Below, one piece after another: positions 4,879-22,209 of a stretch of DNA of 41,320 nucleotides. The position numbers were made by a program, and so were the translations under genes. This DNA comes from Planctomycetota bacterium. GTDB lineage: Bacteria; Planctomycetota; Phycisphaerae; Sedimentisphaerales; Anaerobacaceae. Each line of letters opens with the position of its first letter. The stretch's first letter is position 1. Location of the stretch: NCBI GenBank assembly GCA_016872975.1, contig VGYL01000001.1, positions 1 through 41,320 on the forward strand. The letters are read 5' to 3'. Below the pieces are notes generated by a model. That model saw nothing but the letters and a program-made list of their open reading frames with translations. It ran no database searches and had not been told where the DNA came from.

Positions 4879-6462
4879 TCAGTTGTCGAGGATCTCCAGG
4901 GCCCGTCCTTCATCCACGTCCATCACGTAGCGCAGGTCCGTAATGGAGGCCGCTTCGGGCGTCAGCGCGGCCAGGTCGTCGCGGGACAGGTAGTCCAGGG
5001 AGAACTTGCGGCAGCCGGCCATCAGTTGGCGCAGGCCCTGGGCCAGCCGCTCATAGTACGTGTACAGGCCGATGGCGCCGGTGGGCAGCTTCTCGAAATC
5101 GCCGTTGCCGAACTCCTTGCGCAGGGTACTGGCGGTGACGAAGATCTCGTCCTTGGTCGAGCCGAACCGCTCGACGTAGACCGGGAGCTGATGGGCATCG
5201 ATGGCCCGGCCGATCGTCTTGCCGACCATGGCCGCCGCGACGGGGGCGCGGGCCATGCCGATCAGCTTGACGTACGGAGCCCCCAGGGACAATCCCTTGA
5301 AGATCAGGTCTTCGAAGGTAAACCCGCCGCCGACGGCAATCGCCGGCAGGTGGCGGTTGCGGTCGGCCAGCCGCTTGGCGTACCGGTACAGGAGCGAATG
5401 CAGGTGCAGCGGCGGGACGCCCCATTCATTCATCATCCGCCAGGGGCTCATGCCGGTCCCGCCGGAGGCGCCGTCCACGGTGAGCAGGTCGAGCTTGCAC
5501 TTGGACGCGAAGCTCAAGGCCCGCGCCAGGTCGGCGGGCCGATACGCGCCGGTCTTCAGGAAGATGTACTTGGCCCCGGCGCGGCGCAGCTCTTCCACCC
5601 GCCGGACAAACGATTCCTCCGACACCATCCCGACGCGGGAGTGCCGCTCGAATTCCTTGAAGTTGCCGTTCTGGAACGCCTCGATGACGGCCGGGTCCGT
5701 CGGATTCGGCAGCACGATGTAGCCGCGCTCATGCAGGAGCTGGGCCTTCTTCAGGTCCCGGATCTTCACCTCGCCGCCGATGTTCTTGGCGCCCTGGCCC
5801 CATTTCATTTCGACACACTCGACGCCAAGTTCCCCAATGACGTACTCGTGCACGCCCAGGCGGGTATCTTCGACGTTCGCCTGAACGATGATCGCGCCGT
5901 AGCCGTCGCGCTGGTGCTGGCGGTACAGGTGCACGCGGCGCTTGAGATCGACCGTGTCGAGGACCCGGCCGTTCTCGATGCGGCTCTGGACGTCCATGCC
6001 GGCGACGTTCTCGCCGATCGTCAGACCGGTCCCGGCCAAAGCCGACCCGGCGGCCAGGCCCTCCCAGTTGTTCTTGGCGATGTCGGTGGACCCGATGCCG
6101 GAGATGAGCCAGGGATAGCGGAACTTGAGGCCCCGGTCGTGGCCGAAGCAGACTTCGAGGCTCACGGCGGGAAAGATCGCCTTGTCGCTGTCCGCTTCGA
6201 TCCCGTGCGCCCCGACGCACGTGCCCATGATGTTCAGGTGGGAATAGTCCACCGGGTAGCGTTTCTCCGAGGCCGTCGTGACGACGCCGAAGGGCTGCGG
6301 ATAGATCACCTCATGGCCGCGATAGGCGGACTTGCCGATCTCGCACATGCCGATGCAGCCGTCCACGCAGGTGACACACATGCCCGAGTTGGGCGTCACC
6401 GAGCCTTCCGTGCGGTTCTTGGTCAGGGTGGCGGCGGACGAATTCACTCTCGAAAGGGACAT
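4879..6462 (-). CDS. Glutamate-synthase-related FMN-domain protein (stand-alone GltB domain-2-like, N-terminal Cys cluster)
   Basis: The 527-aa protein contains 'LLTVDGASGGTGMSPW' and 'IAVGGGFTFEDLIFKGLSLGA', which are characteristic of the Glu_synthase FMN barrel. It also has an N-terminal 'CVTCVDGCIGMCE' cluster. An AAGGAGG RBS lies 10 nt upstream, and the gene starts 16 nt after the upstream stop. Confidence 0.85.
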   Translation of the reverse strand: MSLSRVNSSAATLTKNRTEGSVTPNSGMCVTCVDGCIGMCEIGKSAYRGHEVIYPQPFGVVTTASEKRYPVDYSHLNIMGTCVGAHGIEADSDKAIFPAVSLEVCFGHDRGLKFRYPWLISGIGSTDIAKNNWEGLAAGSALAGTGLTIGENVAGMDVQSRIENGRVLDTVDLKRRVHLYRQHQRDGYGAIIVQANVEDTRLGVHEYVIGELGVECVEMKWGQGAKNIGGEVKIRDLKKAQLLHERGYIVLPNPTDPAVIEAFQNGNFKEFERHSRVGMVSEESFVRRVEELRRAGAKYIFLKTGAYRPADLARALSFASKCKLDLLTVDGASGGTGMSPWRMMNEWGVPPLHLHSLLYRYAKRLADRNRHLPAIAVGGGFTFEDLIFKGLSLGAPYVKLIGMARAPVAAAMVGKTIGRAIDAHQLPVYVERFGSTKDEIFVTASTLRKEFGNGDFEKLPTGAIGLYTYYERLAQGLRQLMAGCRKFSLDYLSRDDLAALTPEAASITDLRYVMDVDEGRALEILDN

Positions 6463-6477
6463 CGCGGGGTACCTCCT

Positions 6478-7155
6478 TTAGGGTTTCTTGATCTCACAGG
6501 CGACGCAGGGGTCCATGTAACACATCATGTCGTGGAACGGGTCCTTCTCCAGGCACGGCGGACTGAGATTGGCGCAGCCGCCGCAGACGGCCTTTTGCGG
6601 CTCCGTGTAGGTGCACCGCAGCGAGCAGGCGGGACAGACATAGATGCAGCCCCCGCACTGGCGGCAGACCTCCGAGGGCACGTCGAACGGCGTGCCGATG
6701 CTGCGGCTCTGGCCGCGGCCCCGAAAGCCGATAGCCTGGGCCATCATCTGCTCCTCGCACATCCGCACGCACCGGCCGCACAGGATGCAGTCCTCATATT
6801 CCTGGCGGAACCGCTGCTGGGTGACCTGGTGCTTCGAGGCCAGGTCCTGGATCGTCTTGGACTGCGGACAGGAGGCCAGGAGCAGCTCGAGGATCATCTT
6901 GCGCGCCCGCACGACCCGCGCGGAGGCGGTCCGCACCTTCAGGCCCGGCTCCGCCGGATAGGTGCAGGAGGACACGAGCTTCGCGCCCGGGCCTTCGCCG
7001 ATCTCCACCACGCACAGCCGGCACGCGCCATAGGGCGTCAAGCCCTCCATGTGACAGAGGGTGGGGATGGGAAAGCCCAGGAACTGCGCCGCCTCCAGGA
7101 CGGTGGTCCCCTTTTCGACGGATACTTCCAGTCCGTTGATGGTCAGTGTAATCAT
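6478..7155 (-). CDS. Fe-S subunit: N-terminal plant-type [2Fe-2S] domain plus Cys-rich [4Fe-4S]-type region (NuoG/HydA N-terminal-like, no catalytic domain)
   Basis: The N-terminus 'MITLTINGLEVSVEKGTTVLEAAQFLGFPIPTLCH...GACRLCVVEI' is the classic 2Fe-2S opening of NuoG/FdhA/HydA. Downstream motifs include 'CILCGRCVRMC' and 'CRQCGGCIYVCP'. The start ATG overlaps the upstream stop (ATGA at 7152-7155). Confidence 0.82.
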   Translation of the reverse strand: MITLTINGLEVSVEKGTTVLEAAQFLGFPIPTLCHMEGLTPYGACRLCVVEIGEGPGAKLVSSCTYPAEPGLKVRTASARVVRARKMILELLLASCPQSKTIQDLASKHQVTQQRFRQEYEDCILCGRCVRMCEEQMMAQAIGFRGRGQSRSIGTPFDVPSEVCRQCGGCIYVCPACSLRCTYTEPQKAVCGGCANLSPPCLEKDPFHDMMCYMDPCVACEIKKP

Positions 7156-10100
7156 GCCTGTTGTTCTCCGGGGACGGCGGACGCGGCACACGCCGGGGCC
7201 TGCCCTTGCGTGAAGGCCAGATCGCACCGCAGGCACCGGCGGGCCTCCGCCGTGACCTGCGCTACGGACAGGGGCCTCTCGATTTCGTGGAAGTTCTTCC
7301 TGCGCTGCTTGACCGGCAATACCGCGGGCACGGCCCGCGTGGCGCGTTCGAGCTCCTCGTCGCCGACGGCGGCGGGCTCCAAGAACACGGTGGGCAGCTT
7401 CAGACCGGGCGGCTCCGCCAGGGGCTCGCCGCGCAGGTACCGGTCGATCATGCGCGCCGCCTTCTTGCCCGCCGCGATGGCGTCGATGACCGTGTTCGGC
7501 CCGGTCACCAGGTCGCCTCCGGCAAAGACGCCCGGGACGGAGGTGGCCAGCGTCTTGGGATCGACCTTGACCCGGCCGCCCTTGTCGAGCTCCAGGCCCA
7601 TCCCGGCCAGGCCGTCAGTTTGCGGCCGCTCCCCGATCGCGACAACCAACGTGTCGAACTGGAGCGTGAACTCCGTCCCCGGAACGGGAACCGGTTTGCG
7701 CCGGCCGCTCGCGTCCAACTCGCCCAGGCGGTTGCGGATGCACTCGATGCCCACCAGGCGGCCCTCGCTCGTGCAGATCCGGATCGGCGACACGAGGGTC
7801 TCCAGCGCTACGCCTTCCCGCAACGCCGTCTCGATCTCCTCCTGGCGGACGCGGATCTTGACGGGCGAGACCAGGGTCTCGATCGTCACCCCTTCTTCCA
7901 GGGCCGCCTCAACCTCCTCCTCGTAGGCGGGCATCTCGTCCCGCGTGCGCCGGTACAGGAGCGTCACGCTGGTGACCTCCTTCTGCCGCAGGGCGACGCG
8001 GGCGGCATCGACCGCCGAGTTGCCGCCGCCGACGATCCCGACGTGCCCGCGCGCCAGCTCCGCGCCGCGCAGGTTGAACGCCTTGAGGAACTCCATGGAC
8101 GGGTAGACACCCGCCACGTCCTCGCCTTCGAGGCCCAACCGCCAGCTTTCGTGGGCCCCCAGCGCCAGGAAGACCGCCTGGAATCCCTCGGCGAGAAGCT
8201 CCCGGAGGGCCACATCGCGGCCCAACTCGACGCCGTGCCGTACGGCGATGTTCTCGTTCAGCAGCGTTCTGATTTCCCCGCGGACGATCTCGCGCGGCAG
8301 CCGATAGGCAGGCAAGGAACAGGCGAGCATGCCGCCGGACTCCGGCAGGGCTTCGAGAACCGTGACCTTGTGCCCGAGCAGGGACAGGCCGTGGGCGGCG
8401 GCCAGACCCGCCGGACCGGCCCCAACGACCGCCACCTTCTTCGCCTGACCGTTCGTCGAGCGGACCTCGGGGTGGTACACCGAAGGATCGACGCGGTCGG
8501 TCACGAACCGCTTCAGGGCGCGAACCGCGATCCCTTCGCCGCCGCCGACGCCCAAACTGCAGCGACTTTCGCATTTGCGGTCGCAGACCCTGGCGCTGAC
8601 GGCCGGGAACGGATTGGCTTCCCGAATAATCCGATACGCCTGTTCGTACTGCCCTTTTTCGATCAGGGCCACGTAGCGCCACGGCTCGGTGTCCACCGGG
8701 CAGGCCGCCTGGCACGGCGCCCCGACGAGGCTCTTGCAGACGAACGCATCGCAGCGCTTGTCCTCGATGTGCCGGCGGTACTCCTCGCGGAAGTACCGCA
8801 GCGTGCTCAGCACCGGGTTCGGGGCCGACTGGCCCAGGCCGCACATGGTCGTGTCCTTGACGACCAGGGCCAATTCCTCGAGCAGATCCAGGTGGCCGGG
8901 CGTACCCTGGCCGTGGGTGATTTCGTCGAGAATTTCGTGCATCCGCTGGGTGCCCTTGCGGCAGGTCAGGCACTTGCCGCAGGACTCGTCCTGGAGGAAG
9001 TTCATGAAGTAGCGGGCCACGTCCACCATGCAGGTGTTCTCGTCCATGACGATCATGCCGCCGGAACCCATGATCGAGCCGGCCTTGGTCAGACTGTCAT
9101 AGCTGATGGGCAGGTCGAACAGGGAGGCCGGGATGCAGCCGCCCGACGGGCCGCCCGTCTGGACCGCTTTGACGCGCGTCTTGGCGAGCGGGCCGCCGCC
9201 GATCTCGTAGACCACTTCCTTGAGGGGCGTCCCCAGGGGGACTTCGACGAGGCCGGTATTGCGGATCTTGCCGACCAGGGAGAAGATCTTCGTTCCCGTA
9301 TTGCCGTCGGTGCCGATGGCGGCGAAGGCGTCCGCGCCGTGGCGGATGATGAACGGCACGTTGGCCAGCGTCTCGACGTTGTTGATGCAGGTCGGAGCGC
9401 CGAAGATGCCTTTGGCGATCGGGTACGGCGGGCGTTGGCGCGGCTCGCCCATGCGTCCTTCGATGGATTTGATCAGGGCCGTCTCTTCGCCGCAAACGAA
9501 GGCGCCCGCGCCGCGCACGATGTCGATGTCGAAGCGGATGCCGGACCCGAGCAGGTTGTCACCCAGCAGTCCCATGCCGCGGGCCTGCCGCAGTGCGATC
9601 TGCGCGTGTTTGATCGCCAGGGGATATTCGCTGCGGACGTAGATGACACCGTCGGTGGCGCCGATCGCGAGGGCCGCGAGGGTCATGCCCTCCATGATGG
9701 CGTGCGGATTGCCTTCCAGGAGACTGCGGTCCATGTAAGCTCCGGGGTCGCCTTCGTCCGCGTTGCAGACGACGTATTTCTTGCCGCCAACCTTGGCCGC
9801 CTTGCGGGCCAACTCCCACTTACGGCCCGTGGGGAAGCCCGCGCCGCCCCGGCCGCGCAGGCCCGATTTGACCACTTCCTGGACGATCCGCTCGGGGTCC
9901 GGGTTTTCGAGCACTTTGAGAAGGGCCTGGTAGCCGCCTTCCCTGATATAGTCGAGGATGCGGATCGGATCGATGCGCTGGTTGGCGCCGAGGATGATGC
10001 GCTTCTGCCCCTGGAAGAAAGGGATCTCCTCCTGGCAGCGGCATTTGCGGGTGGTGCCGGGCTCGCGATAGAGCAGTTCCTCGACCACCGTGCCAGCCAG

Positions 10101-10406
10101 CACCGCATCGATAATCCGCGGGACGTGCTTCATCTCGAGCTTGGGATAGACCGCATGCCCCGGCTCCACCACGATGAAGGGGTCCATCTCGCAGAAACCG
10201 AGGCAGCCCGTGATCCGCAGCGCGAGGCGGTCGCCGAGATTTCGCTCGATGATCTGCCTCTTGATGATGCGGATCAGGTCGTTGGAGCCGCTGGCCTGTC
10301 CGCCGGTGCCGGCACAGATGATGAGGCAGGGTTTGCCGCCGTCCGGCCCGCCCGTGACGGTTCGGCAGAACTCCCGGAACTCGGCGGTGGATTGCATCGT
10401 TGCCAT
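7152..10406 (-). CDS. Fusion flavoprotein: Trx-like 2Fe-2S domain + NuoF/HydB-like NADH/FMN/[4Fe-4S] module + GltD/NfnB-like FAD/NAD(P)H module
   Basis: The 1084-aa protein starts at 'MATMQST'. NuoF motifs are 'GLRGRGGAGFPTGRKWE', 'VCNADEGDPGAYMDR' and 'ESCGKCLTCRKG...MCGLG'. GltD-like motifs are 'CQAACPV', 'VAVVGAGPAGLAAAHGL' and 'VGIVGGGNSAVDAARVA'. The start overlaps the NuoE-like stop by 1 nt (TAATG). Confidence 0.9.
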   Translation of the reverse strand: MATMQSTAEFREFCRTVTGGPDGGKPCLIICAGTGGQASGSNDLIRIIKRQIIERNLGDRLALRITGCLGFCEMDPFIVVEPGHAVYPKLEMKHVPRIIDAVLAGTVVEELLYREPGTTRKCRCQEEIPFFQGQKRIILGANQRIDPIRILDYIREGGYQALLKVLENPDPERIVQEVVKSGLRGRGGAGFPTGRKWELARKAAKVGGKKYVVCNADEGDPGAYMDRSLLEGNPHAIMEGMTLAALAIGATDGVIYVRSEYPLAIKHAQIALRQARGMGLLGDNLLGSGIRFDIDIVRGAGAFVCGEETALIKSIEGRMGEPRQRPPYPIAKGIFGAPTCINNVETLANVPFIIRHGADAFAAIGTDGNTGTKIFSLVGKIRNTGLVEVPLGTPLKEVVYEIGGGPLAKTRVKAVQTGGPSGGCIPASLFDLPISYDSLTKAGSIMGSGGMIVMDENTCMVDVARYFMNFLQDESCGKCLTCRKGTQRMHEILDEITHGQGTPGHLDLLEELALVVKDTTMCGLGQSAPNPVLSTLRYFREEYRRHIEDKRCDAFVCKSLVGAPCQAACPVDTEPWRYVALIEKGQYEQAYRIIREANPFPAVSARVCDRKCESRCSLGVGGGEGIAVRALKRFVTDRVDPSVYHPEVRSTNGQAKKVAVVGAGPAGLAAAHGLSLLGHKVTVLEALPESGGMLACSLPAYRLPREIVRGEIRTLLNENIAVRHGVELGRDVALRELLAEGFQAVFLALGAHESWRLGLEGEDVAGVYPSMEFLKAFNLRGAELARGHVGIVGGGNSAVDAARVALRQKEVTSVTLLYRRTRDEMPAYEEEVEAALEEGVTIETLVSPVKIRVRQEEIETALREGVALETLVSPIRICTSEGRLVGIECIRNRLGELDASGRRKPVPVPGTEFTLQFDTLVVAIGERPQTDGLAGMGLELDKGGRVKVDPKTLATSVPGVFAGGDLVTGPNTVIDAIAAGKKAARMIDRYLRGEPLAEPPGLKLPTVFLEPAAVGDEELERATRAVPAVLPVKQRRKNFHEIERPLSVAQVTAEARRCLRCDLAFTQGQAPACAASAVPGEQQA

Positions 10407-11281
10407 TATGCCCCTTTCCCCTCTGGTGAAACGTTCCGCACGGCGGCCCCGAGGTCGAGCCGGTGTCCCGGACAGCCGCGTCGCGCACACCGATGCAGTG
10501 CGGCGCAGGAGCCGGCCGTCAGCGCGGCCATCGTCGCGCCGCACTCGGGACAATCCGAGCCGTCGGCAAGCTCGCGTCCGCAGTGCGGACACGACAGCAC
10601 CGCCAACGCTCCCTCGGGAATCGCGTCGTCACCGGCGGCCGCGGCATTGCCGTAGAGCGATGACAGGTGCAGGGCGCCCATCTTGCCGGCGAACGAGGCG
10701 GTCAATCGGATGGAAGCCTGGCCCTCCAGGGGATGTCCGGCATCCATCAGGCTCTGACCACACTGGGGGCAACTGACATGGATCGGGAACACCCGCTCGT
10801 CGACGTCCGCGCCGGATTGCGGGAAGCCTTGGCGCGCCTGCTCCAGAATGTGCGGCACCTTGGCCGTGGTGACATGCCGGAAGTAGCGCTGATCCACTAC
10901 CACCGTCGGACCCAACGCGCAGGCGCCGAGGCAGTTCACCGTCTCCAGGGTGAATTCCTTGTCGGGCGTGGTTTCTCCCGGCGGAATGCCCAGTTGCCGG
11001 CGGAACTCCTCCACAATCTTGGGCGCCCCTCGCACATGACACGCGGTGCCGAGACATACGGAGATGAGATGCTTGCCGCGTGGCTTGAGGCTGAAGGCCT
11101 TGTAGAAGGTGACGACCGCGTAGATGTCGGTCAGCGAGCGGCCGGTCGCCGCCGCGACCTTGTGCAGAGCGTCCTGGGGCAGATACCTGTACTTCGCCTG
11201 GATTTCGCTGAGGACAGACAGCATGCCCCCCAGCGAGCCGTGATGCTCGGCGACGATCTTCTCAACAGCGTGCTCATCCAT
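10406..11281 (-). CDS. NuoE/HydC-like thioredoxin-fold [2Fe-2S] protein with a ~125-aa C-terminal CxxC-rich (zinc-ribbon-like) extension
   Basis: The start 'MDEHAVEKIV' at 11281 has an AAGAGG RBS. The NuoE core is seen in 'LISVCLGTACHVRGA...VNCLGACALGP'. The C-terminal part contains 'CPQCG', 'CPHCG' and 'CPECG'. Confidence 0.85.
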   Translation of the reverse strand: MDEHAVEKIVAEHHGSLGGMLSVLSEIQAKYRYLPQDALHKVAAATGRSLTDIYAVVTFYKAFSLKPRGKHLISVCLGTACHVRGAPKIVEEFRRQLGIPPGETTPDKEFTLETVNCLGACALGPTVVVDQRYFRHVTTAKVPHILEQARQGFPQSGADVDERVFPIHVSCPQCGQSLMDAGHPLEGQASIRLTASFAGKMGALHLSSLYGNAAAAGDDAIPEGALAVLSCPHCGRELADGSDCPECGATMAALTAGSCAALHRCARRGCPGHRLDLGAAVRNVSPEGKGA

Positions 11282-11331
11282 TGGAACCTCTTGTCGACAG
11301 GCCAGGTCGGCCCCGGGGGCGACAGCGCCCC

Positions 11332-11604
11332 TCAGCAATATTCCTCGCAGTGCCATACCCCGCCGGGCGAGTCCCGCAACGTGCAGGAGCCGCGACTCTG
11401 GCAGTTGCAGCACAGACCCATCGCCACATCGAGCACGGCCTCAGCGTCGGCCGCAACCGGAGCCTTCCGCCTCGAGGGGATCGGCACGGCATCGTCGAAC
11501 TGCTCGCAGAAGTGAACGGGGAACAGAATCTCGTTGCGCCGGGTGCATAGGAAACTGTTGTTGCAGGTCGAGCACAGGCCCAGAGATTTATCTCCCATTC
11601 CCAT
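11332..11604 (-). CDS. Small (90 aa) cysteine-rich protein with two copies of a C-x2-C-x5-C-x11/12-C-E-(Q/E)-(F/Y) module
   Basis: An AGGAGG RBS lies 8 nt upstream of the ATG at 11604. This is the first ORF downstream of the sigma-54 promoter. The two modules are 'GLCSTCNNSFLCTRRNEILFPVHFCEQF' and 'GLCCNCQSRGSCTLRDSPGGVWHCEEY'. I do not recognise a family name. Confidence 0.55.
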   Translation of the reverse strand: MGMGDKSLGLCSTCNNSFLCTRRNEILFPVHFCEQFDDAVPIPSRRKAPVAADAEAVLDVAMGLCCNCQSRGSCTLRDSPGGVWHCEEYC

Positions 11605-11702
11605 GACTGCAAACCTCCTATTTCCTGCACGCATCCGGACGGTTCCGCGGCACGGCCGCCAGCGCCCGTGCCACGCAGTCGCAACAAACAGCCCCTCCCA
11701 TA

Positions 11703-11717
11703 GCAACGTCCGTGCCA
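11703..11717 (-). promoter_or_regulatory. Sigma-54 (RpoN) -24/-12 promoter
   Basis: The minus strand reads TGGCAC-GGACG-TTGC, an exact match to TGGCAC-N5-TTGC. It lies ~100 nt upstream of the Cys-rich ORF and immediately downstream of a sigma-54-dependent response regulator gene. Confidence 0.65.
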
Positions 11718-11851: not shown

Positions 11852-11890
11852 GGTGGGGAGATTGGGACCACTGGGGAGATTCTCCCCACC
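11852..11890. promoter_or_regulatory. Candidate enhancer (UAS): GGTGGGGAGA half-sites arranged as an inverted/direct repeat
   Basis: The sequence is 'GGTGGGGAGA-ttgggaccac-TGGGGAGAtTCTCCCCACC'. It contains the 7-bp-arm palindrome GGGGAGA-t-TCTCCCC, and the outer arms GGTGGGGAGA and TCTCCCCACC are complementary. It lies 135-170 bp upstream of the -24 element. Confidence 0.3.
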
Positions 11891-11894
11891 TTAA

Positions 11895-11978
11895 GCAAGG
11901 AAAAAGGAAAAAGGCAAGAGGCAAAATGGAGATGCGGCCTTTCCCCTTTTGCCTTTTGCCTTTTTCCCTTTGCCTTGC
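11895..11978 (-). terminator. Long imperfect hairpin (about 35-nt arms, GGCAAAAGG-type repeats) directly after the response-regulator stop; a putative terminator or insulator
   Basis: The arm 'gcaaggaaaaaggaaaaaggcaagaggcaaaatgg' pairs with 'ccccttttgccttttgcctttttccctttgccttgc'. On the minus strand the hairpin begins 10 nt after the stop at 11988-11990, and its 3' arm is U-rich. Confidence 0.4.
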
Positions 11979-11987
11979 ATCAGGTTC

Positions 11988-13337
11988 TTACAGGTCCAGG
12001 CCGTATTCGGTGATCTTCTTGCGCAGGGTCTTGCGGTCGATGCCGAGGATCTGGGCCGCCTGCGTCTTGTTGCCGCCGACGTTGGCCAGGACGTTGCGGA
12101 TGTGGTCCGCCTCCACCTCGGCCAGGGTCCGGTTCACCCCGGTCGTGCGCAGGGCCGAGAAGCGGGCAAACGACGGCAGATCCGGGACCTCAATGACCTG
12201 GTCGTCGTACATGACCACAATCCGCTGGATCACGTTCTCCAGCTCCCGCGCGTTGCCCGGCCAGGCGTAATTCTGCAGGGCCTCCATCGCCTTTTCGGAA
12301 AAACGCGGGACCGTCTTGCCCAGCTCCGAGGCGAACTTCTCGGCGAAGTGGCGGACCAAGAGGGCAATGTCACTACCCCGGGCCCGCAGGGGCGGGACCT
12401 CGATCGCGACGACGTTGATGCGATAGTACAGCTCCTCGCGGAACACCCGGCTTTGAATGAGACTGTGCAGGTCCTTGTTCGTGGCGGCGATGATCCGCAC
12501 GTCCACCGTCCGGACGCGGGCGTCGCCCACCATGCGCACCTCCTTGTCCTGGAGGACCCGCAGGAGCTTCACCTGCATGGCGATGCTCGTCTCGCCGATC
12601 TCGTCGAGGAAGATCGTGCCACCGTCGGCGGTCTGGAAGAACCCCGCCCGCGACTCGTGGGCGCCGGTGAACGCGCCTTTGACGTACCCGAACAGCTCAC
12701 TCTCCAGGAGGCTCTCCGGGATGCCGCCGCAGTTGACGGGCACAAACGGCGCGGCGGCCCGGGTACTGCTGTAATGGATCGCCCGCGCCACCAGCTCCTT
12801 GCCGCTGCCGCTTTCGCCGGTAATGAGGACCGTGGCCGAGGTCGCCGACGCCTTGCGGATTGCCGCGAAAACGCGCTGCATCGCGGGCGATTCGCCGATC
12901 AGACCGTAGGCGAATTCCGGCACGGGCGCGGGTCCCAGCGCCGCCGCGCGTCTTTGGCAGAGCTTGTCCACGACCCGGCGGACCGCCGCCAGCAGCTCGC
13001 TCTCGGTGAACGGCTTGGCGACGTACTCTTCCGCGCCGCTCTTGAGGGCCTCCACCGCGCTTTCCACGGTCGCGTAGCCGGTGATCATCATCACGGCGGT
13101 GTCCTTGTAGTTCTCGCGCACGTGCCGGATCAGGTCGATGCCGCTGATCCTGGGCATCTTCAGGTCCGTGATGACGAGGTCCACGGCCGTGCCTTCCAGC
13201 AGGCGCAGGGCATCGACGGCGTTGGGGACCGTGTAGGTCGTGTACCCCTCGGCGGTCAGGGTCCGTTGCAGGACCTCCAGGGTGCTGGCGGTATCGTCAA
13301 CGACAAGAATCGTCTCTTTGTTTTCGGGTGAGCTCAT
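11988..13337 (-). CDS. Sigma-54-dependent response regulator (NtrC family: REC + AAA+ + Fis-type HTH)
   Basis: The REC domain shows 'ILVVDD...DLVITDLKMP'. The AAA+ domain has Walker A 'GESGSGKE' and the sigma-54 contact loop 'GAFTGA'. A C-terminal HTH is seen in 'NKTQAAQILGIDRKTLRKK'. The start overlaps the kinase stop (ATGA). Confidence 0.93.
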   Translation of the reverse strand: MSSPENKETILVVDDTASTLEVLQRTLTAEGYTTYTVPNAVDALRLLEGTAVDLVITDLKMPRISGIDLIRHVRENYKDTAVMMITGYATVESAVEALKSGAEEYVAKPFTESELLAAVRRVVDKLCQRRAAALGPAPVPEFAYGLIGESPAMQRVFAAIRKASATSATVLITGESGSGKELVARAIHYSSTRAAAPFVPVNCGGIPESLLESELFGYVKGAFTGAHESRAGFFQTADGGTIFLDEIGETSIAMQVKLLRVLQDKEVRMVGDARVRTVDVRIIAATNKDLHSLIQSRVFREELYYRINVVAIEVPPLRARGSDIALLVRHFAEKFASELGKTVPRFSEKAMEALQNYAWPGNARELENVIQRIVVMYDDQVIEVPDLPSFARFSALRTTGVNRTLAEVEADHIRNVLANVGGNKTQAAQILGIDRKTLRKKITEYGLDL

Positions 13338-14506
13338 GATTCCGGGCGGTTCTCCAGGTCAGCGACCGGCTCCAGGGGCAGTCGAATGGTGAACGTCGTC
13401 CCCTGGCCGGGCGCGCTGCGGACCGCGATCGTCCCCCCATGCGCGGCGACGATCCCATGAACGACGGGCAGGCCCAGGCCCGTTCCCTGGTTCACCTCCT
13501 TGGTCGTGAAGAAGGGCATGAACAGACGGTCCTGCACCTCGGGGGTCATGCCCACTCCCGTGTCCTCGACGACGCAGACGACGTGCCCCTCCTGCACCTG
13601 GGTCTGGATCGTGAGTCGTCCCCCTCCCGGCATGGCCTGCATCGCGTTGACCACGAGATTGACCACGACCTGGGTCAACTGGCCGGCATCGGCGGCCAAC
13701 AGGGGCATCTCGGGACTCAGCAAACACAGCAACTCGATCTCTTCCTTCTCGAAGTGGTGCCGGAACAGATCGATCGCGCCCAGAATGACCTTGTTGAGGT
13801 CCACGGGCCCTTTGAACGTGGGCGTCTGCCGGGCGAAGAGCAGGAGTTTCTTGATGATCTCCCGGGCATGGAGGGAAGCGGTCACAATCTTCTGGAGGTC
13901 GGGCTTGCCTCCTTCAGGCATGCCCGGCTCGCGCTGCAACAACTGGGCAAAGCCGAGAATGCTGCTGAGCGGCTCGTTCAGCTCGTGGGCGACGCCCGCC
14001 GCCAACTGGCCGATCGTGGCCAGGCGGTCCGCGTGCATGAGCTGCTTTTGCAGCCGGCTCCGCTCCTGCTGGGCCTCCTGGTGTTCCACGATGACGGCAA
14101 TCTGCCGGGCGATGGCATCCAGCAAACTCCGTTCATCCTTCAAGAACGGCCCCTCATCCAGGCTCGGTCTCGGCTCGGTGTACACCACCTCGACCACGCC
14201 GCGGTGTTTGCCGCCCACGACCACGTCCGCCGCCTGGGTGGGGCCGCCCTCCTGAAAGCCCGGGGTCGCATAGCGCCGGGCATCCAGGGTGATCCGGGCC
14301 GACGCGACCTCCGGGTACTGCCATGCCGGCGGGATCAACTCCACCACGCGCTGATAGATATCGTCGGACGACCCGATGAAGTCATCGAAGATACGATTGA
14401 TCCGGTACAGGCAACTCAGCTCCTTCACCCGTTCGCGCAGTGCCCGCGCCGTCTGGTCTGCCGGCGGCGCCACGGCCCCGGCCTTGCTTTCCGCTCGTTT
14501 GCTCAT
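13334..14506 (-). CDS. Cytoplasmic sensor histidine kinase (uncharacterised N-terminal sensor module + HisKA + HATPase_c)
   Basis: The H-box is 'GVAHELNEPLSSI'. ATPase motifs are 'VVNLVVNAMQA', 'DTGVGM' and 'GTGLGL'. There is no TM segment. The N-terminal ~140 aa contain 'KELSCLYRINRI'. Confidence 0.9.
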   Translation of the reverse strand: MSKRAESKAGAVAPPADQTARALRERVKELSCLYRINRIFDDFIGSSDDIYQRVVELIPPAWQYPEVASARITLDARRYATPGFQEGGPTQAADVVVGGKHRGVVEVVYTEPRPSLDEGPFLKDERSLLDAIARQIAVIVEHQEAQQERSRLQKQLMHADRLATIGQLAAGVAHELNEPLSSILGFAQLLQREPGMPEGGKPDLQKIVTASLHAREIIKKLLLFARQTPTFKGPVDLNKVILGAIDLFRHHFEKEEIELLCLLSPEMPLLAADAGQLTQVVVNLVVNAMQAMPGGGRLTIQTQVQEGHVVCVVEDTGVGMTPEVQDRLFMPFFTTKEVNQGTGLGLPVVHGIVAAHGGTIAVRSAPGQGTTFTIRLPLEPVADLENRPES

Positions 14507-14984: not shown

Positions 14985-15788
14985 TCAATACCTGGTCAAT
15001 TCCTCGCGTTCGGCCGGTCGCCGGAGGGCGGTCTCGCTTGCGTGGCGCTCGCCCTCAGTCGGCACCGTGGCCACGAGTTCCTGCACCAAGGTTGCGCTCA
15101 CATGGCCGAAACGGCCCGGGCCGGTGCCGGGCTCGCACGCCGCACCGCGAACGCAGACGGCATCGACGCCCGCCGCCCACAGGCCCGGCAACTCGTCCTT
15201 GCCGATGCTACCGCCCACCCAGGCGGCGAGGCCCCGGTCATGGCATCGGGCGACGAAATCCTCGATATCCCCCAGCTTGTAGTAGTCCAATAGCCCCAGG
15301 CCGAGGCCTTTGTCGTAGGTGTCGACCAGCAGCCCATCGGCCCGCATGTGGGCCGCCAGGTCCGGCCCCTCCTCGATCGGGTCGATGTACCAACGGGCCA
15401 GCCGTTCGTCCGCGAACAGCACCGGCACACGTATCTTGGCCGGAAACCACTTCTTGACCGTTCGGATCAGGGCCGGCCCGAACTCCCGCGCCTCGCCGAG
15501 CGGCATCCTGGCAAGGCCGAGCTTGATGATGTCGGCCCCCGCCAGGGCGACGCCCAACACGGCCTGGCAGGCCGTCGAGCGTCCCAACTGCTCGCCCCCG
15601 ATGTTCGTGGCCACCGGGATCGGCCCCGGCACGGTCTCCCGCACAGCCAGGATGTTGAGCGGATACGGCGTGCCCAGCGCCGCCGCGGGATACTCCACGT
15701 CCACGATATGGACGCCGCCCTCGACCGCCGCGATGGCCTCGGTCTTGCCGCGCACCCCTACCAACAATCTCTGATGCCGATCTCTCAT
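14985..15788 (-). CDS. DUF556/MfnB-like ((5-formylfuran-3-yl)methyl phosphate synthase family) protein, divergent
   Basis: The start is 'MRDRHQRLLVGVRGKTEAIAAVEGGVHIVDVEYP'. This aligns without gaps to the MfnB N-terminus as I recall it ('[27 protein letters not shown]'). 'IIKLGL', 'LVDTYDKG' and 'VCVRGAAC' are also conserved. There is a ~35-aa C-terminal extension. Confidence 0.68.
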   Translation of the reverse strand: MRDRHQRLLVGVRGKTEAIAAVEGGVHIVDVEYPAAALGTPYPLNILAVRETVPGPIPVATNIGGEQLGRSTACQAVLGVALAGADIIKLGLARMPLGEAREFGPALIRTVKKWFPAKIRVPVLFADERLARWYIDPIEEGPDLAAHMRADGLLVDTYDKGLGLGLLDYYKLGDIEDFVARCHDRGLAAWVGGSIGKDELPGLWAAGVDAVCVRGAACEPGTGPGRFGHVSATLVQELVATVPTEGERHASETALRRPAEREELTRY

Positions 15789-16726
15789 TCCGTCATCGCT
15801 CCACTGCAACGAATTCTCGAAAATGCCAGTCCCCCCTGAGCATACGACTTGCGGCACAGCTTAGTTTGTCTTCCCGCGATTGGGCCGGACGCCGGACGGG
15901 TAGAACGATTCGTGCGGGGGCAATGGAAAGAAAACAACGATCCGCTCAAAGGCCAAGACGCAGCCAGTCCCGCAGGGACGACCGAGAATAGCCCACCGTT
16001 TCAACGGTGGGTAATGGGCGTTCGCATGAATCCCTAGCCCCGCCAGGGGCGAAAGAGACGCTCTGCCAATCCGTAGGGGCTCTTTCGTCCCTGGCGGGAC
16101 TGGTCTGGTCTTTCTGGCCGTATCCCCAGCGATGAATCGCTGGGCTATGATCTTTCGCCCTGCGGGCTTGCCGTTAGCCTTTGGGCGGATCATTGAAAAG
16201 AATGGGTATGGTTCAACGCGGGGTAGCAGTCCTGATCGGCCGAAGCCACACGGAAGCGAACATAAACTACTGTGGTGAAAGCCCTTATGGCAATCACAGT
16301 TTGCGTTGTGCGTCACACGAATGGTACCTTGGCTCACGCGATCCTGAACCCTGCCAAGAAATGCGAGGGTCCGGAGCAACCTCTGGAAAGAACCCCGGAC
16401 CCCGCTCGACGCATACCGTCGCACCCGCCCTATCGGCCGCGCCGGGCCGTACCTTGGCGACGACAGAGACAAAAAGAAAAAAAAACGACAAAAATACGTA
16501 GTCAGCACAATAGATAGAAATGGACTATTCCGTCATACTGGACGTGAATCATGGATGACAGGGGTGCCACTCGCGATCTGTTCCCCAGGGGCTGTTGGGA
16601 GCACCTTTCCGGGGTGGTGCCCCGCTTTTCTCTTGGATACCGCCGCCGACCCGAGCCGCCAGACCACGCGGACCAGAGTACCCAGCGCGTCCTTCGGCCG
16701 CAAGCAAGTCCAAAGAAACCGCAGAT

Positions 16727-16846: not shown

Positions 16847-16975
16847 AAACCGCCAGTTTCTTAGGAGCGTCTTGACGCCGTAAAGGCCGGACGATATTTT
16901 GGGCAACTTCGACTGTGACGGGCAAGAAACCGTTTTATGGACTTTGACCCTGGCGGGTCGGAAAGGAAGGACAGT

Positions 16976-18160
16976 ATGGGAAAGCGATTGACGGCAGTAC
17001 TCGTGAGCCTGCTGATTGTGAGCGTGGCCTTCAGCGCCCCGTTCTTCGGCAGCCGCAAGAAGAAGGCCCCGCAGGCCGCGGCGCCGATCAAGATCGGCGC
17101 GATCTTCGCGGTCACCGGCGGGGCGGCGTTTCTCGGCGGCCCCGAGGCCCGCACCGCGGAGATGTTCGTCGAGAACCTCAACAAGGCCGGCGGGATCAAA
17201 GGCCGGCCGATCCAGCTCATCGTAAGGGACTCCGCCAGTACACCGGCCCAGGCGATCTCGCTGGCCAAGCAGCTCATCGATGAGGAGAAGGTCCTGGCGA
17301 TTATCGGCCCCTCGACCAGCGGCGAGACCATGGCGATCAAGAACATCTGCCAGGAAGGCAAGACAATCCTGCTGTCGTGTGCCGCGGCGGAGGACATCGT
17401 CAACCCGGTCGCCAGCTACGTGTTCAAGACCCCGCAGAAGGACAGCGACGCGGTCCGGCGGATCTACATGGTGATGAAGGACCTGGGCATCAGCAAGGTC
17501 GGGGTGATCACGAGCAACGACGGGTTCGGGATCGCCGGCGGCAAGCAACTGGCCGCGATCGCCCCGGAGTACGGCATCACGATCGCCACCTCCGAGGTGT
17601 ACGACGCGAAAGAGACCAGCCTGCAGGGGGTCCTGACGAAGGTCAAAGGCGCGGACGTCCAGGCGGTCATCAACTGGTCCATCGTGCCGGCCCAGAGCCT
17701 GGCCGCGAAAGACATGAAGCAGATCGGCTTGAACGTGCCGCTGTTCCAGAGCCACGGTTTCGGCAACATCAAGTACGTCCAGGCCGGCGGCGAGGCGGCG
17801 GAAGGCACGATCTTCCCGTGCGGCCGGCTGCTCGTGGCGGAATCCCTGCCCGGCAACCATCCGCAGAAGAAAGTCCTGATGGAGTACAAGCGGGAATACG
17901 AGAAGCGGTACAAGGAAGACGCCAGCACGTTCGGCGGTCACGCCTACGATGCCCTGCTGGTCCTGACCGAGGCCATCAAGAAGGCCGGCAGCACCGACCC
18001 GGAGGCGGTCCGCACCGCCATCGAGGGGCTCCAGGGCGTCGCCGGCACCGGCGGCCTCTTCAACTTCTCCGCGACCGATCATAACGGCCTGGGCCTGGAC
18101 GCGTTCGAGATGCTCACCGTCAAGAACGGCAAGTTCGCGATCTATAAACCGAAGAAGTAA
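16976..18160 (+). CDS. ABC transporter substrate-binding protein, branched-chain amino acid (LivK/LivJ, Peripla_BP_6) family
   Basis: The start 'MGKRLTAVLVSLLIV' provides a signal peptide. 'IKIGAIFAVTGGAAFLGGPE...AGGIKGRPIQLIVRDSAS' is the typical family opening. It is followed by the permease and ATPase genes. Confidence 0.88.
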   Translation: MGKRLTAVLVSLLIVSVAFSAPFFGSRKKKAPQAAAPIKIGAIFAVTGGAAFLGGPEARTAEMFVENLNKAGGIKGRPIQLIVRDSASTPAQAISLAKQLIDEEKVLAIIGPSTSGETMAIKNICQEGKTILLSCAAAEDIVNPVASYVFKTPQKDSDAVRRIYMVMKDLGISKVGVITSNDGFGIAGGKQLAAIAPEYGITIATSEVYDAKETSLQGVLTKVKGADVQAVINWSIVPAQSLAAKDMKQIGLNVPLFQSHGFGNIKYVQAGGEAAEGTIFPCGRLLVAESLPGNHPQKKVLMEYKREYEKRYKEDASTFGGHAYDALLVLTEAIKKAGSTDPEAVRTAIEGLQGVAGTGGLFNFSATDHNGLGLDAFEMLTVKNGKFAIYKPKK

Positions 18161-18190
18161 GACACGTGTTTCGGCGGCAAACACGTGTGC

Positions 18191-18290
18191 GGGGTGGCAG
18201 CGTCAAGGCCCGGGTTCGTAGTGTGCTCGTAAGAGCATAGAAGATAGCGTCTGACGACGCCACTACAAACGCGCTTGACGCTGCCGCCCA
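18191..18290. repeat. Palindromic 'GGTGGCAGCGTCAAG...CTTGACGCTGCC' element between the binding-protein and permease genes
   Basis: The outer arms 'ggggtggcagcgtcaagg' and 'cttgacgctgccgcccacc' are complementary. The inner module 'gttcgtagtgtgctcgtaagagcatagaa' recurs inverted at 35057-35092. Confidence 0.85.
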
Positions 18291-18367
18291 CCGGAAGTTC
18301 GAAGTGCGGAGTGCTCTGAAAACTGGAAGACTTCAAACGTGAAACTCTCTTCCTGCTTGAAACTGGC

Positions 18368-19255
18368 ATGGATCTTTCCCAGATTGTGCAATACGGTCTC
18401 TCGGGCATCACGGTCGGCAGCATCTATGCCATCGTGGCCATCGGGTTCAATATCATTTACGCCACCACGGGGATCATCAACTTCGCCCAGGGCGAGTTCC
18501 TGATCGTCGGGGCGATGACGGCGATCAGCCTGTCGCACTTCGTGCCGCTGCCGGTGGCGATTGCCGGGGCGGTGCTGGTGACGACCGTGCTGGGCGGGCT
18601 GATGGAGCTGGTCTTCATCCGGCCCGTGAAGAACGCCTCGGTCCTGCGGCTGATCGTCATCACGATCGGCCTGTCCATCGTGATCCGCGAGGTCATGCTC
18701 CACCTCTGGGATGAGACGGTCCGCTCGATGCCGTACTTCACCGGCACCGCGGTCTCGACCGTCACGATCCTGGGCGCGGGCGTTTCGCTGCAGGTCTTCT
18801 GGGTTTTGGGCGTCAGCGCCGTGATCGTGACGGCGCTGACGCTGTTCTTTCGCTACACCCTGACCGGCCGGGCCATGCGGGCCTGCGCCGACGACCGGAT
18901 GGCGGCCCGCCTGTGCGGCATCAACGACCGCCGGATGGTGACGCTGTCGTTCATGCTCTCGGCCGGCATCGGGGCCCTGGCCGGCTGCGTGATCTCGCCC
19001 GTGACGCAAACCCAATACGACATGGGGGCCCCCCTGGCGATCAAGGGCTTCACCGTGGCGATTCTCGGCGGTCTCGGCAACAGCATGGGAGCAGTGGCGG
19101 CGGGCCTGCTGCTCGGCCTGCTGGAGGCCCTGGTCACGAGCCAGTCCTCCGCCTACAAGGAGGCCGTCTCGATCGTGGTCCTGCTGCTGATCCTGGTGTT
19201 CCGGCCCAGCGGCCTGTTCGCCCGACACGGGATCAGTGCCTTGAGGACAGCATAA
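18368..19255 (+). CDS. livH: Branched-chain amino acid ABC transporter permease (LivH family)
   Basis: This 295-aa polytopic protein has 'GIINFAQGEFLIVGAM' and 'GGLGNSMGAVAAGLLLGLLE', which are typical of LivH. Its stop overlaps the next start (TAATG). Confidence 0.9.
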   Translation: MDLSQIVQYGLSGITVGSIYAIVAIGFNIIYATTGIINFAQGEFLIVGAMTAISLSHFVPLPVAIAGAVLVTTVLGGLMELVFIRPVKNASVLRLIVITIGLSIVIREVMLHLWDETVRSMPYFTGTAVSTVTILGAGVSLQVFWVLGVSAVIVTALTLFFRYTLTGRAMRACADDRMAARLCGINDRRMVTLSFMLSAGIGALAGCVISPVTQTQYDMGAPLAIKGFTVAILGGLGNSMGAVAAGLLLGLLEALVTSQSSAYKEAVSIVVLLLILVFRPSGLFARHGISALRTA

Positions 19256-20322: not shown

Positions 20323-20325
20323 GGA

Positions 20326-20488
20326 CGAAAATTCCAAATCCCAAATCCCAAATTCCAAACAAACTCCAATGCCCAAAATCCAAAATTCAAAACGGCCCCA
20401 CCGACCGGCGGCAGCGTTTTGGTCATTGGTGCTTGGGATTTTGGATTTGTTTGGGATTTGGAATTTGGAATTTGGTGCTTTGATTTCC
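20326..20488. repeat. ~160-bp AT-rich palindromic element (same family as 3426), filling the livM-livG gap
   Basis: The arms at 20328-20394 and 20415-20488 are near-complementary around a GC-rich ~20-nt loop. Confidence 0.92.
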
Positions 20489-20499
20489 GGGGGGGTCTT

Positions 20500-22027: not shown

Positions 22028-22032
22028 GGACA

Positions 22033-22189
22033 AAAGCACTAAATTCCAAATCCCAAATCTCAAACAAATCCAAATGACCAAAATTCGAAATTCAGAACGG
22101 GACTCCCGCGTGGCGTCAGCATTTGGGTCATTGGGATTTGGTGCTTTGGATTTGTTTGAGATTTGGAATTTGGAATTTCGGATTTCTCC
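22033..22189. repeat. ~160-bp AT-rich palindromic element (same family), filling the livF-paaK gap
   Basis: The arms at 22035-22099 and 22119-22189 are near-complementary. The loop resembles that of the 30766 copy. Confidence 0.92.
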
Positions 22190-22209
22190 GGCATGTGAGG
22201 CTTAGGCTC

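Follow-up and report, generated by a model that had tools for sequence, protein, structure and literature searches.

A conserved seven-gene locus predicted to encode a Bfu-type iron-sulfur flavoenzyme with a GltB-like FMN subunit

We analysed a stretch of 41,320 nt of contig VGYL01000001.1 (64-67% G+C; hereafter "the window", always meaning this whole stretch), which carries on its minus strand a tight cluster of five genes, named here g1 to g5, directly preceded on the same strand by a sensor kinase gene and a regulator gene. Across related loci, the invariant core of this cluster consists of HydC-, HydB- and short-HydA-like proteins together with a GltB-like subunit. Judging from the sequences, the encoded enzyme very probably has a Bfu-type (HydABC-like) architecture, and the case for glutamate formation by its GltB-like subunit g5 appears about evenly balanced. 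The genes are the following, in the order in which they are read.

13334-14506 from the first ATG (stop-to-stop frame to 14707), minus strand: kinase, a cytoplasmic histidine kinase whose start codon is uncertain
11988-13337, minus strand: regulator, an NtrC-family sigma-54 enhancer-binding response regulator with REC, AAA+ and HTH_8 domains
11332-11604, minus strand: g1, 90 aa, with an AGGAGG ribosome-binding site
10406-11281, minus strand: g2, 291 aa, HydC/NuoE/BfuC-like [2Fe-2S] subunit
7152-10406, minus strand: g3, 1084 aa, HydB/BfuB-like subunit fused to a GltD/NfnB-like module
6478-7155, minus strand: g4, 225 aa, short HydA/NuoG-N-terminal (BfuA-like) wire subunit
4879-6462, minus strand: g5, 527 aa, stand-alone GltB-type FMN TIM-barrel subunit

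A first-pass annotation of this DNA had described five tightly coupled minus-strand genes, and we could confirm this coupling: g2 and g3 overlap by 1 nt (TAATG), g3 and g4 by 4 nt (ATGA), and g4 and g5 are separated by a short gap, which measures 15 nt and not the 16 nt given there, with an AAGGAGG site that overlaps the stop codon. The remaining junction, between g1 and g2, is a gap of 50 nt. The G+C content at third codon positions (GC3) ranges from 0.76 to 0.90 in the five frames, which marks them as real, and in orthologous loci the g1-g5 genes, g1 included, were also called by independent pipelines (JGI, NCBI). g1 to g5 are real genes, and the recurrence of their order across related genomes is far beyond chance.

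A scan of one genome per species gave at least 580 confirmed loci, the best 80 of which were kept and searched by tblastn with the window proteins. Among these 80, the seven-gene order kinase, regulator, g1, g2, g3, g4, g5 recurs across more than ten phyla, with carriers that include Planctomycetota, Zixibacteria, Ignavibacteria, Acidobacteriota, Syntrophales, Bacteroidota and Verrucomicrobiota; the loci closest to the window come from metagenome-assembled genomes of Phycisphaerae and Sedimentisphaerales. Co-conservation was counted only in loci with enough upstream sequence, and g5 is present in all of them by construction of the scan. On this basis, g4 lies directly upstream of g5 in 76/76 loci, and a NuoF-like and a NuoE-like gene are found in 65/65 and 60/60 loci, respectively, so the trio does co-occur with the GltB-like gene, which is the question that the first-pass annotation had posed for a neighbourhood survey. 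The other components are frequent: the GltD module in 58 of 69 loci, g1 in at least 46 of 57, the regulator in 42 of 54 and the kinase in 42 of 52. g5 has more than 8000 database relatives and is better conserved than any other protein of the set, with identities of 77-93% among orthologues across phyla; it is still 79-81% identical in Planctomycetota, Lentisphaeria, KSB1, Thermodesulfobacteriota, Bacteroidota, Eisenbacteria and Verrucomicrobiota. The number of loci (at least 580), their spread over more than ten phyla and a g5 that stays about 80% identical point to an important, constrained function. All-against-all clustering of the open reading frames within 10 kb in the 80 loci, in which transporters, aminotransferases and glnA were sought, returned no further conserved neighbour gene; the only recurrent genes downstream of the cluster are sensor kinases that share the N-terminal domain of the kinase.

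The domain assignments made earlier for the five proteins all hold in Pfam and NCBIfam profile searches, g1 being without a family match. g2 matches Pfam 2Fe-2S_thioredx at 6.9e-47 and has HydC of bifurcating hydrogenases as its best solved relatives. Beyond this domain it carries a 140-aa C-terminal extension with zinc-ribbon-like CxxC pairs and 8 further invariant cysteines; the cluster residues C76, C81, C117 and C121 and the tail residues 171, 174, 231, 234, 244, 247, 265 and 270 are 100% conserved in 54 orthologues. g4 matches Fer2_4 (3.4e-17) and the 4Fe-4S dicluster domain Fer4_7 (3.2e-07), and its motifs correspond to one [2Fe-2S] and two [4Fe-4S] clusters followed by an 8-Cys C-terminal module with all 8 cysteines invariant; in total 21 of its cysteines are at least 97% conserved and 20 are invariant. 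Neither a catalytic domain nor the His-ligated cluster motif of NuoG/HydA was detected in g4. Its best solved match is a 247-aa NuoG-like chain, 9mqx_A, presumably belonging to the tungsten aldehyde oxidoreductase Wor-Bfu, followed by the N-termini of HydA proteins.

The large fusion g3 is built, in this order, of a Trx-like 2Fe-2S domain (weak match), Complex1_51K (4.5e-46), SLBB (borderline, 26.6 bits against a cutoff of 27), NADH_4Fe-4S (1.7e-33), Fer4_20 and Pyr_redox_2. Its first part thus comprises the Trx-like domain, an NADH-FMN site, SLBB and the NuoF [4Fe-4S] domain, and its second part is predicted from motifs to hold two [4Fe-4S] clusters, FAD and an NADPH-type YRRT site. In line with the binding sites that had been read in this fusion, the Cys motifs, GxGxxG, GGGNSAxDAAR and YRRT (the last of which we take as a marker of NADPH) of the GltD part are kept in 57 orthologues. 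Over their full length, residues 28-561 of g3 can be aligned with the HydB/NfnB subunits of solved bifurcating complexes (E=1e-161 to 1e-198), among them A. mobile NiFe-HydABCSL, the HydABC of A. woodii, T. kivui and T. maritima, the NfnABC of Caldicellulosiruptor and T. sibiricus, and Stn. Since the match to Nqo1 of complex I is weaker (1e-108), the core is closer to bifurcating enzymes than to complex I. The alignment with HydB ends at residue 561, where the GltD Fer4_20 domain then replaces the C-terminal ferredoxin-like domain. The GltD module is absent from 11 of the 69 loci (L018, L028, L036, L041, L052, L053, L055, L064, L066, L075 and L080), and all eight GltD-less orthologues examined (8/8) end in the canonical HydB tail CxxCxxCxxxCP...CxxCxxCxxxC, a 2x[4Fe-4S] motif.

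Two local features of g3 may be recorded at this point. The GltD module contains a 26-aa insertion (7788-7865, residues 848-873) resembling a tandem duplication (EEVEAALEEGVTIETLVSPVKI / EEIETALREGVALETLVSPIRI), which is missing from more than half of the orthologues. In the Trx-like domain (10190-10330), the [2Fe-2S]-type motif has its first Cys pair displaced, C27/C31 standing where HydB has CxGTGC; this pair varies among orthologues, many of which have a single Cys there, and it recalls both StnB, in which two cysteines are replaced by Gly, and NfnB, for which zinc sites were reported.

The Bfu family provides the closest frame for these proteins. BfuB combines a Nuo51 FMN domain, SLBB and a NuoF [4Fe-4S] domain (IPR011538, IPR019554, IPR019575) with a C-terminal ferredoxin-type 2x[4Fe-4S] domain (IPR017896) that holds clusters B3/B4 of the ferredoxin branch, BfuC is a NuoE-like [2Fe-2S] subunit (IPR002023), and BfuA has at least 2Fe-2S and 4Fe-4S ferredoxin-type domains (PMC9304861). 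In the window we found the BfuB FMN, SLBB (borderline) and [4Fe-4S] domains, the BfuC domain and the BfuA domains. The C-terminal ferredoxin-type domain of BfuB is absent from the g3 of the window and present in the eight GltD-less orthologues, whose canonical HydB tail gives them the full BfuABC domain set as defined in PMC9304861, plus g5. HydC-like, HydB-like and short HydA-N-terminal-like subunits thus share one operon with an extra catalytic subunit, as in Bfu enzymes. In Type 2 Bfu enzymes, additional subunits feed a BfuA that is devoid of the A3 and A5 clusters (PMC9304861). The window shows a resemblance to such enzymes, for example Wor-Bfu (PMC9304861, PMC12318220), in its short BfuA-like wire and separate catalytic subunit.

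On the other hand, the window departs from the Bfu enzymes in several respects: its third-substrate module is a GltB-type FMN barrel, most loci of the cluster swap the HydB ferredoxin-like domain for a GltD FAD/NADPH module, the HydC-like g2 has its 140-aa 8-Cys tail, the BfuA-like g4 has an extra 8-Cys tail, a small 8-Cys protein (g1) is added, and the operon is under sigma-54/two-component control. The third substrates known from the 2022 survey and from 2025 papers are H2, formate, CO, NADP, pyruvate, aldehydes, aryl-CoA, F420, quinone and peroxide. Neither that survey nor the 2025 structural papers list a function that involves a glutamate-synthase-like module; the text and supplement of the survey make no mention of glutamate or Glt, and 17 BfuB clades were left without assignment there (PMC9304861). 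Likewise, we found in the open-access literature searched no description of a truncated glutamate synthase that is NuoEF- or Bfu-linked, bifurcating or ammonia/ferredoxin-dependent. Measured against that literature, the Bfu-family complex predicted here stands out by a GltB-type module, a GltD swap, two unusual Cys-rich extensions, an unannotated 8-Cys family and a conserved, dedicated sigma-54 unit.

The first-pass annotation had interpreted the locus as an Stn/Nfn module set with one extra subunit, recalling Stn as a NuoE-like subunit, a NuoF::NfnB-like fusion and a HydA-like subunit without H-cluster. Its observation of the genes and domains is confirmed and its interpretation is supported in part, but the Stn premise fails. 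According to the literature on Stn and NfnABC, it is the NuoG/HydA-like subunit (StnC/NfnA) that carries the fused GltD/NfnB-like module, and StnB is simply homologous to HydB (PMC7483475, PMC9304861). Consistently, the solved chains 8oh5_C, 9bov_A and 9n5u_A match g4 with their residues ~4-97 and the GltD half of g3 with their residues ~102-395. The window does share with Stn/NfnABC (PMC7483475, PMC10482914, PMC11829005, PMC12018979) the NuoE-like, NuoF/HydB-like, NuoG/HydA-N-terminal-like and GltD/NfnB-like NADPH-FAD blocks. However, GltD sits on the NuoG-like subunit in Stn/Nfn, in the mid-potential path, whereas in the window it sits on the C-terminus of the HydB-like subunit, where the ferredoxin branch would end; this is exactly the B3/B4 place, at the opposite end of the complex from the Stn position. 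Moreover, Stn has three subunits and no GltB-like protein, while the window has five co-conserved genes including g5.

It could still be argued that an Stn/Nfn-like NADH/NADPH/ferredoxin transhydrogenase is made up of the NuoE, NuoF::GltD and Fer2 proteins, and that the GltB-like protein is an accessory or a separate enzyme that happens to share their transcript. The presence of NADH-FMN and NADPH-FAD sites in one polypeptide would fit this explanation, as would the resemblance of the GltD half to the NADPH module of NfnA/StnC. We nevertheless consider it highly improbable, since the GltD module is missing in 11/69 loci, g4 is always found beside g5 (with the proviso on the scan given above), and GltD is fused to another subunit in Stn. 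In addition, the conservation of g5, the highest of the set at 77-93%, suggests tight interfaces within a complex, and g5 occurs together with the Bfu genes in a different order in Elusimicrobia. The dispensability of GltD and the constant pairing of g4 with g5 indicate that the GltB-like subunit is a core catalytic module and not an add-on. The complex is more fittingly classed as a new type of Bfu enzyme than as a derivative of Stn.

The identity of g5 is central to what this complex may do. Its only Pfam match is Glu_synthase, a weak one (1.1e-12, 48 bits, residues 279-400) that agrees with the glutamate-synthase FMN domain first proposed for this 527-aa protein; no NCBIfam model matched it. 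C29, C32, C36 and C40, arranged as an N-terminal C-x2-C-x3-C-x3-C motif, are its only invariant cysteines. A first AlphaFold2 (AF2) model, built on a shallow alignment of sequences at least 78% identical, reached a pLDDT of 57 with generic FMN-barrel fold matches and was replaced. The second model was built on a 129-sequence alignment including relatives 47-71% identical, obtained by profile search, and reached a pLDDT of 89.9 and a pTM of 0.89. Its best fold match is the ferredoxin-dependent glutamate synthase (Fd-GltS) of Synechocystis with 2-oxoglutarate bound (1ofd_A, E=8e-10, highest identity). Plain local alignment of g5 with E. coli GltB, which was more informative for motifs than hhalign, paired the following segments.

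g5 NVEDTR (E198-D199-x-R): GGEDPAR in E. coli GltB
g5 KWGQGAK-NIGGE (Q223-G-A-K226..GG): KVAQGAKPGEGGQ in E. coli GltB
g5 GGTGMSP: GGTGASP in E. coli GltB
g5 GGGFTFED: DGGLKTGVD in E. coli GltB

The motif residues of g5 aligned in this way are invariant in 129/129 family members. We take ED-x-R, QGAK..GG and GGTG-SP to be the lining of the FMN/2-oxoglutarate site of GltS. By sequence and model, g5 is a divergent FMN-domain-only member of the GltB superfamily with a predicted cluster-binding motif of its own, and it is presumed to be the catalytic (third-substrate) subunit.

With GltBD and Fd-GltS the window has in common the FMN barrel of g5 with its conserved active-site motifs, a GltD-type NADPH-FAD-2x[4Fe-4S] module in the same operon, and a link of g5 relatives to glnA and nitrogen regulators. 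It differs from them in that g5 has no amidotransferase, central or GXGXG domain (profile searches of g1-g5 found no amidotransferase or GXGXG domain, as the first-pass annotation had stated), and in that an N-terminal 4-Cys motif replaces the [3Fe-4S] motif. Compared with GltBD, the GltD module is fused to the NuoF-like protein and optional instead of being a separate beta subunit, and a NuoE/NuoF/Fer2 chain separates the pyridine-nucleotide site from the FMN barrel. Further truncated or modular GltB relatives are known in the split archaeal-type glutamate synthases. Another parallel is FGltS, a putative F420-dependent glutamate synthase made of an FrhB::GltS(FMN) fusion (PMC3448663), which like g5 is an FMN-domain-only GltB homologue with an exchangeable electron-input module; this module is FrhB in FGltS and the Bfu core in the window. 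In P0253, a distant g5 relative of 800 aa, the N-terminus is extended by a segment with 4Fe-4S-type Cys motifs, whose likeness to FrhB was judged by eye only; if this extension is FrhB-like, the protein recalls FGltS.

The relatives of g5 outside the seven-gene form proved informative. An Aminicenantes relative (71% identical) lies in a minimal four-gene operon composed of NuoE (163 aa), a HydB-like protein (617 aa), Fer2_4 and g5. In Elusimicrobia (59%; L089 7001-13261) the order is purL, purQ, a His_biosynth-family gene, purF, pyrG, g5, NuoE, HydB, Fer2_4 and a GAF-ANTAR regulator. This different gene order and the minimal Aminicenantes form argue that g5 and the Bfu proteins make up a functional unit. 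Stand-alone g5-like genes exist as well: the one in Calderihabitans maritimus (63% identical) follows a REC-ANTAR regulator gene, and the rest come from Caldicoprobacter, a Moorellaceae genome and three others. In Margulisbacteria (54%; L091 4844-8581), glnA and a GAF-ANTAR regulator precede the g5-like gene, and in Thermodesulfovibrionales (54%; L090 1-10500) the g5-like gene is followed by glnA and an NrpR-like gene and also lies beside nifH, nifDK-like genes, a NifA-like activator and a second glnA. In Elusimicrobia, Margulisbacteria and Thermodesulfovibrionales, the g5-like gene seems to be under ANTAR antitermination rather than sigma-54 control. Taken together, the sequences suggest that the g5 family is a catalytic FMN subunit taking electrons from exchangeable donors. 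The recurrence of glutamine synthetase, nitrogen-type regulators and glutamine-using enzymes near its relatives points to glutamate formation, with free ammonia as the likely nitrogen donor because no glutaminase is present.

Based on these findings, we propose that g2 to g5, perhaps with g1, would assemble into one soluble multi-subunit iron-sulfur flavoenzyme of the Bfu family. The BfuC-like g2 and the BfuB-like g3 would form the NADH-binding FMN core, g4 would serve as an Fe-S cluster chain, and g5, a GltB-type FMN barrel that lacks a glutaminase and has a 4-Cys cluster of its own at the N-terminus, would be the catalytic end. In the current model of Bfu enzymes, electrons of the third substrate pass through the BfuA clusters and B1 to the FMN, and the low-potential branch runs from the HydC cluster C1 to B3/B4 in the HydB ferredoxin-like domain and on to ferredoxin (PMC12018979). 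For the complex of the window, the path would lead from the FMN and [4Fe-4S] cluster of g3 through the clusters of g4 and the N-terminal cluster of g5 to the FMN of g5 and the substrate. There, 2-oxoglutarate and free ammonia would form 2-iminoglutarate, which would be reduced to glutamate for nitrogen assimilation. As to the second branch, in the GltD-less forms it would lead electrons from the HydC cluster to ferredoxin by way of the HydB ferredoxin-like domain, while in the fused form of the window GltD would act as a FAD/NADP(H) port, so that NADH would work together with NADPH and/or ferredoxin. Two stoichiometries may be proposed. The substrate could be reduced by NADH acting together with reduced ferredoxin (or NADPH), as was proposed for the high-potential types Nuo-Bfu and Rub-Bfu (PMC9304861); alternatively, the electrons of NADH could be split between substrate and ferredoxin.

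The general idea of a split, NADH/ferredoxin-linked glutamate-synthase-like enzyme, already put forward in the first-pass annotation, fits this evidence. Our more specific proposal is a Bfu-type complex that has free ammonia and 2-oxoglutarate as third substrate and couples glutamate formation to ferredoxin (consumed with NADH, or produced by splitting of NADH electrons), with a low-potential branch rewired by the GltD swap and with g1 as a new 2x4-Cys Fe-S family, the whole being a widespread glutamate route in anaerobes. It is tentative, and we think it rather unlikely that all of its parts will hold together.

The regulatory region bears on the physiological role of the complex, and two elements were located upstream of g1.

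11702-11717, minus strand: sigma-54 (-24/-12) promoter TGGCACGGACGTTGCT, exact consensus, 98 nt upstream of the g1 start codon
11851-11892, minus strand: candidate upstream activator site, an inverted repeat made of the GGGGAGAATCTCCCC palindrome and a third TCCCC half-site (full element GGTGGGGAGAATCTCCCCAGTGGTCCCAATCTCCCCACC)

TGGCACGGACGTTGCT is the sole sigma-54 consensus match in the window, even with one mismatch allowed, and in 27 of 44 related loci g1 is preceded by a comparable -24/-12 element. Inside the operon, neither a sigma-70-like promoter nor an intrinsic terminator rose above background. The candidate activator site lies ~155 nt upstream of the promoter, and a GGGGA-N5-TCCCC(+TCCCC) element is found 30-120 nt past the stop codon of the regulator in 16/44 loci from several phyla, against a background of 0.0012 per kb in the remainder of those loci; it is likely the operator to which the enhancer-binding protein would bind. 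The regulator itself matches Sigma54_activat at 1e-70. A -24/-12 promoter, an adjacent gene for an AAA+ enhancer-binding protein and an upstream activator site are thus all present at the sequence level, in agreement with the sigma-54 control by an NtrC-type regulator that had been suggested earlier, and the operon is predicted to be activated, via sigma-54, by the kinase and regulator of the cluster itself.

We considered whether this pair could be orthologous to NtrBC and rejected it, the regulator scoring 430 bits against an NtrC cutoff of 558 and the kinase showing likeness to AtoS/ZraS-type kinases in its catalytic half only. The N-terminus of the kinase (14070-14506; KELSCLYRI...) is a sensor domain of ~145 aa that is GAF-like, with a faint GAF match in an orthologue, and it recurs at 34-42% identity in larger sensor kinases just downstream of g5 (L049, L052, L060, L065, L070, L078).

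Two further repeats were noticed in this region. Immediately past the regulator stop codon, a 42-nt imperfect inverted repeat (11888-11985, 86% complementary) is composed of AAGGCAAAAGG-like units and reaches over the edge of the operator-like element. As a hairpin, it may serve as a terminator or insulator between the regulator gene and the sigma-54 operon. A second TGGCAC-containing copy, GTGGCACGGGCGCTG, without the -12 TTGC, lies 44 nt downstream of the promoter (11660-11675, minus strand) and pairs with 11646-11659 as a 14-nt inverted repeat.

A number of observations weigh against the glutamate-forming assignment and its ferredoxin coupling. Concerning g5 itself, it shares 17% identity with 1ofd_A in the fold alignment, which places it very far from characterised GltS; other GltS entries are interleaved in the fold search with alpha-hydroxy-acid oxidases and IDI-2, which score almost as well; hhalign of the g5 family against the single E. 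coli GltB gave 16-50% probability over ~80 columns; and searches of PDB chains by sequence, with g5 alone or with a 50-sequence profile, returned nothing relevant. GltS carries a [3Fe-4S] motif, CX5CX4C, following the FMN domain. This motif is absent from g5, which has no conserved Cys past residue 400, and no Ntn-type glutamine amidotransferase or GXGXG domain was found in g1-g5 or in conserved neighbours. Concerning the context, the conserved neighbours of the seven-gene form in the 80 loci include no glnA, amtB or PII gene, and the kinase of this form is not NtrB-like, so that the nitrogen link rests on the more distant relatives, those 47-63% identical, and not on the conserved neighbourhood of the seven-gene form. 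Concerning the energetics, the 2-oxoglutarate + NH3/glutamate couple lies, by our own estimate, at ~-0.1 to -0.15 V, much more positive than NADH, and a bifurcating core would therefore be thermodynamically unneeded. For the GltD-for-ferredoxin-domain swap, no characterised precedent was found in the open-access literature searched, so that bifurcation by the GltD-fused form is no more than a possibility.

Part of these points would fit equally a complex of the same Bfu type in which g5 acts on another substrate, such as another 2-oxo acid or imine, an alpha-hydroxy acid or a small molecule sensed by the GAF-like kinase, the operon then encoding a catabolic or redox-balancing oxidoreductase. 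The remote likeness of g5 to GltS would be accounted for, as would the good fold scores of glycolate and lactate oxidases, flavocytochrome b2 and IDI-2, the lack of a conserved nitrogen gene beside the seven-gene form and the uninformative neighbours of several stand-alone relatives; a dedicated two-component system with its own conserved operator further suggests induction by a specific signal. We regard this explanation as a serious one, although unlikely. The GltB-aligned motifs are invariant across the 129 family members, GltS is the top fold match with the highest identity, Pfam assigns Glu_synthase alone, and four independent relatives lie beside glnA, ANTAR/NifA-type regulators or glutamine amidotransferases.

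The complex might also run in the oxidative direction in amino-acid-fermenting anaerobes, converting glutamate into 2-oxoglutarate and NH3, with reduced ferredoxin or NADPH co-oxidised to pull the unfavourable NAD+ reduction. The Etf-dependent lactate dehydrogenase offers an analogy for such a reaction. Points in its favour are the reversibility of Bfu enzymes (PMC9304861), a set of hosts that consists mostly of anaerobic fermenters or syntrophs (e.g. Phycisphaerae, Ignavibacteria, Syntrophales, Zixibacteria), and a Liv-type amino-acid ABC transporter near the cluster in the window. However, this transporter is not conserved in other loci, and the relatives of g5 sit with assimilatory genes (glnA, nif, glutamine-dependent biosynthetic amidotransferases). 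Control by sigma-54 and an enhancer-binding protein is also more typical of assimilation. Considering all this, we find the oxidative reaction improbable and retain glutamate formation as the preferred assignment for g5, at the even balance stated at the outset.

Bfu enzymes are a major energy-coupling device of anaerobes, and a glutamate-synthase-like module is not among their listed third substrates. If the substrate is indeed 2-oxoglutarate with ammonia, many uncultured anaerobes would have their nitrogen assimilation tied to the NADH, NADPH and ferredoxin pools. Current metabolic reconstructions would miss such wiring; they would call the genes "NADH dehydrogenase" and "glutamate synthase-related". 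The replacement of the ferredoxin domain by GltD represents a natural experiment on the low-potential branch of Bfu enzymes, for which the GltD-less loci are natural controls of the fusion.

The first protein of the operon, g1, consists of two repeats of C-x2-C-x5-C-x~12-C-E-E-[FY], which give 8 invariant cysteines, and matches no Pfam or NCBIfam family. It belongs to a family of ~2500 members, all named hypothetical; the two homologues that we looked up both lie within the same 7-gene cluster and were called as genes by other pipelines. Probably g1 adds a small metal or Fe-S subunit to the complex or acts as a dedicated carrier.

The flanks of the cluster are unrelated to it. On the kinase side lies, at 14985-15857 (minus strand), a homologue of 4-HFC-P synthase (MfnB, methanofuran biosynthesis) that does not reach the NCBIfam equivalog cutoffs and has no conserved counterpart in related loci. 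It is followed on the plus strand, at 16919-23523, by the Liv-type ABC transporter (binding protein, two permeases, two ATPases) and a PaaK-like AMP-forming ligase, a unit that diverges from the kinase side and is not conserved beside the cluster elsewhere. The other flank carries mreCD, PBP2 and a glycosyltransferase gene.

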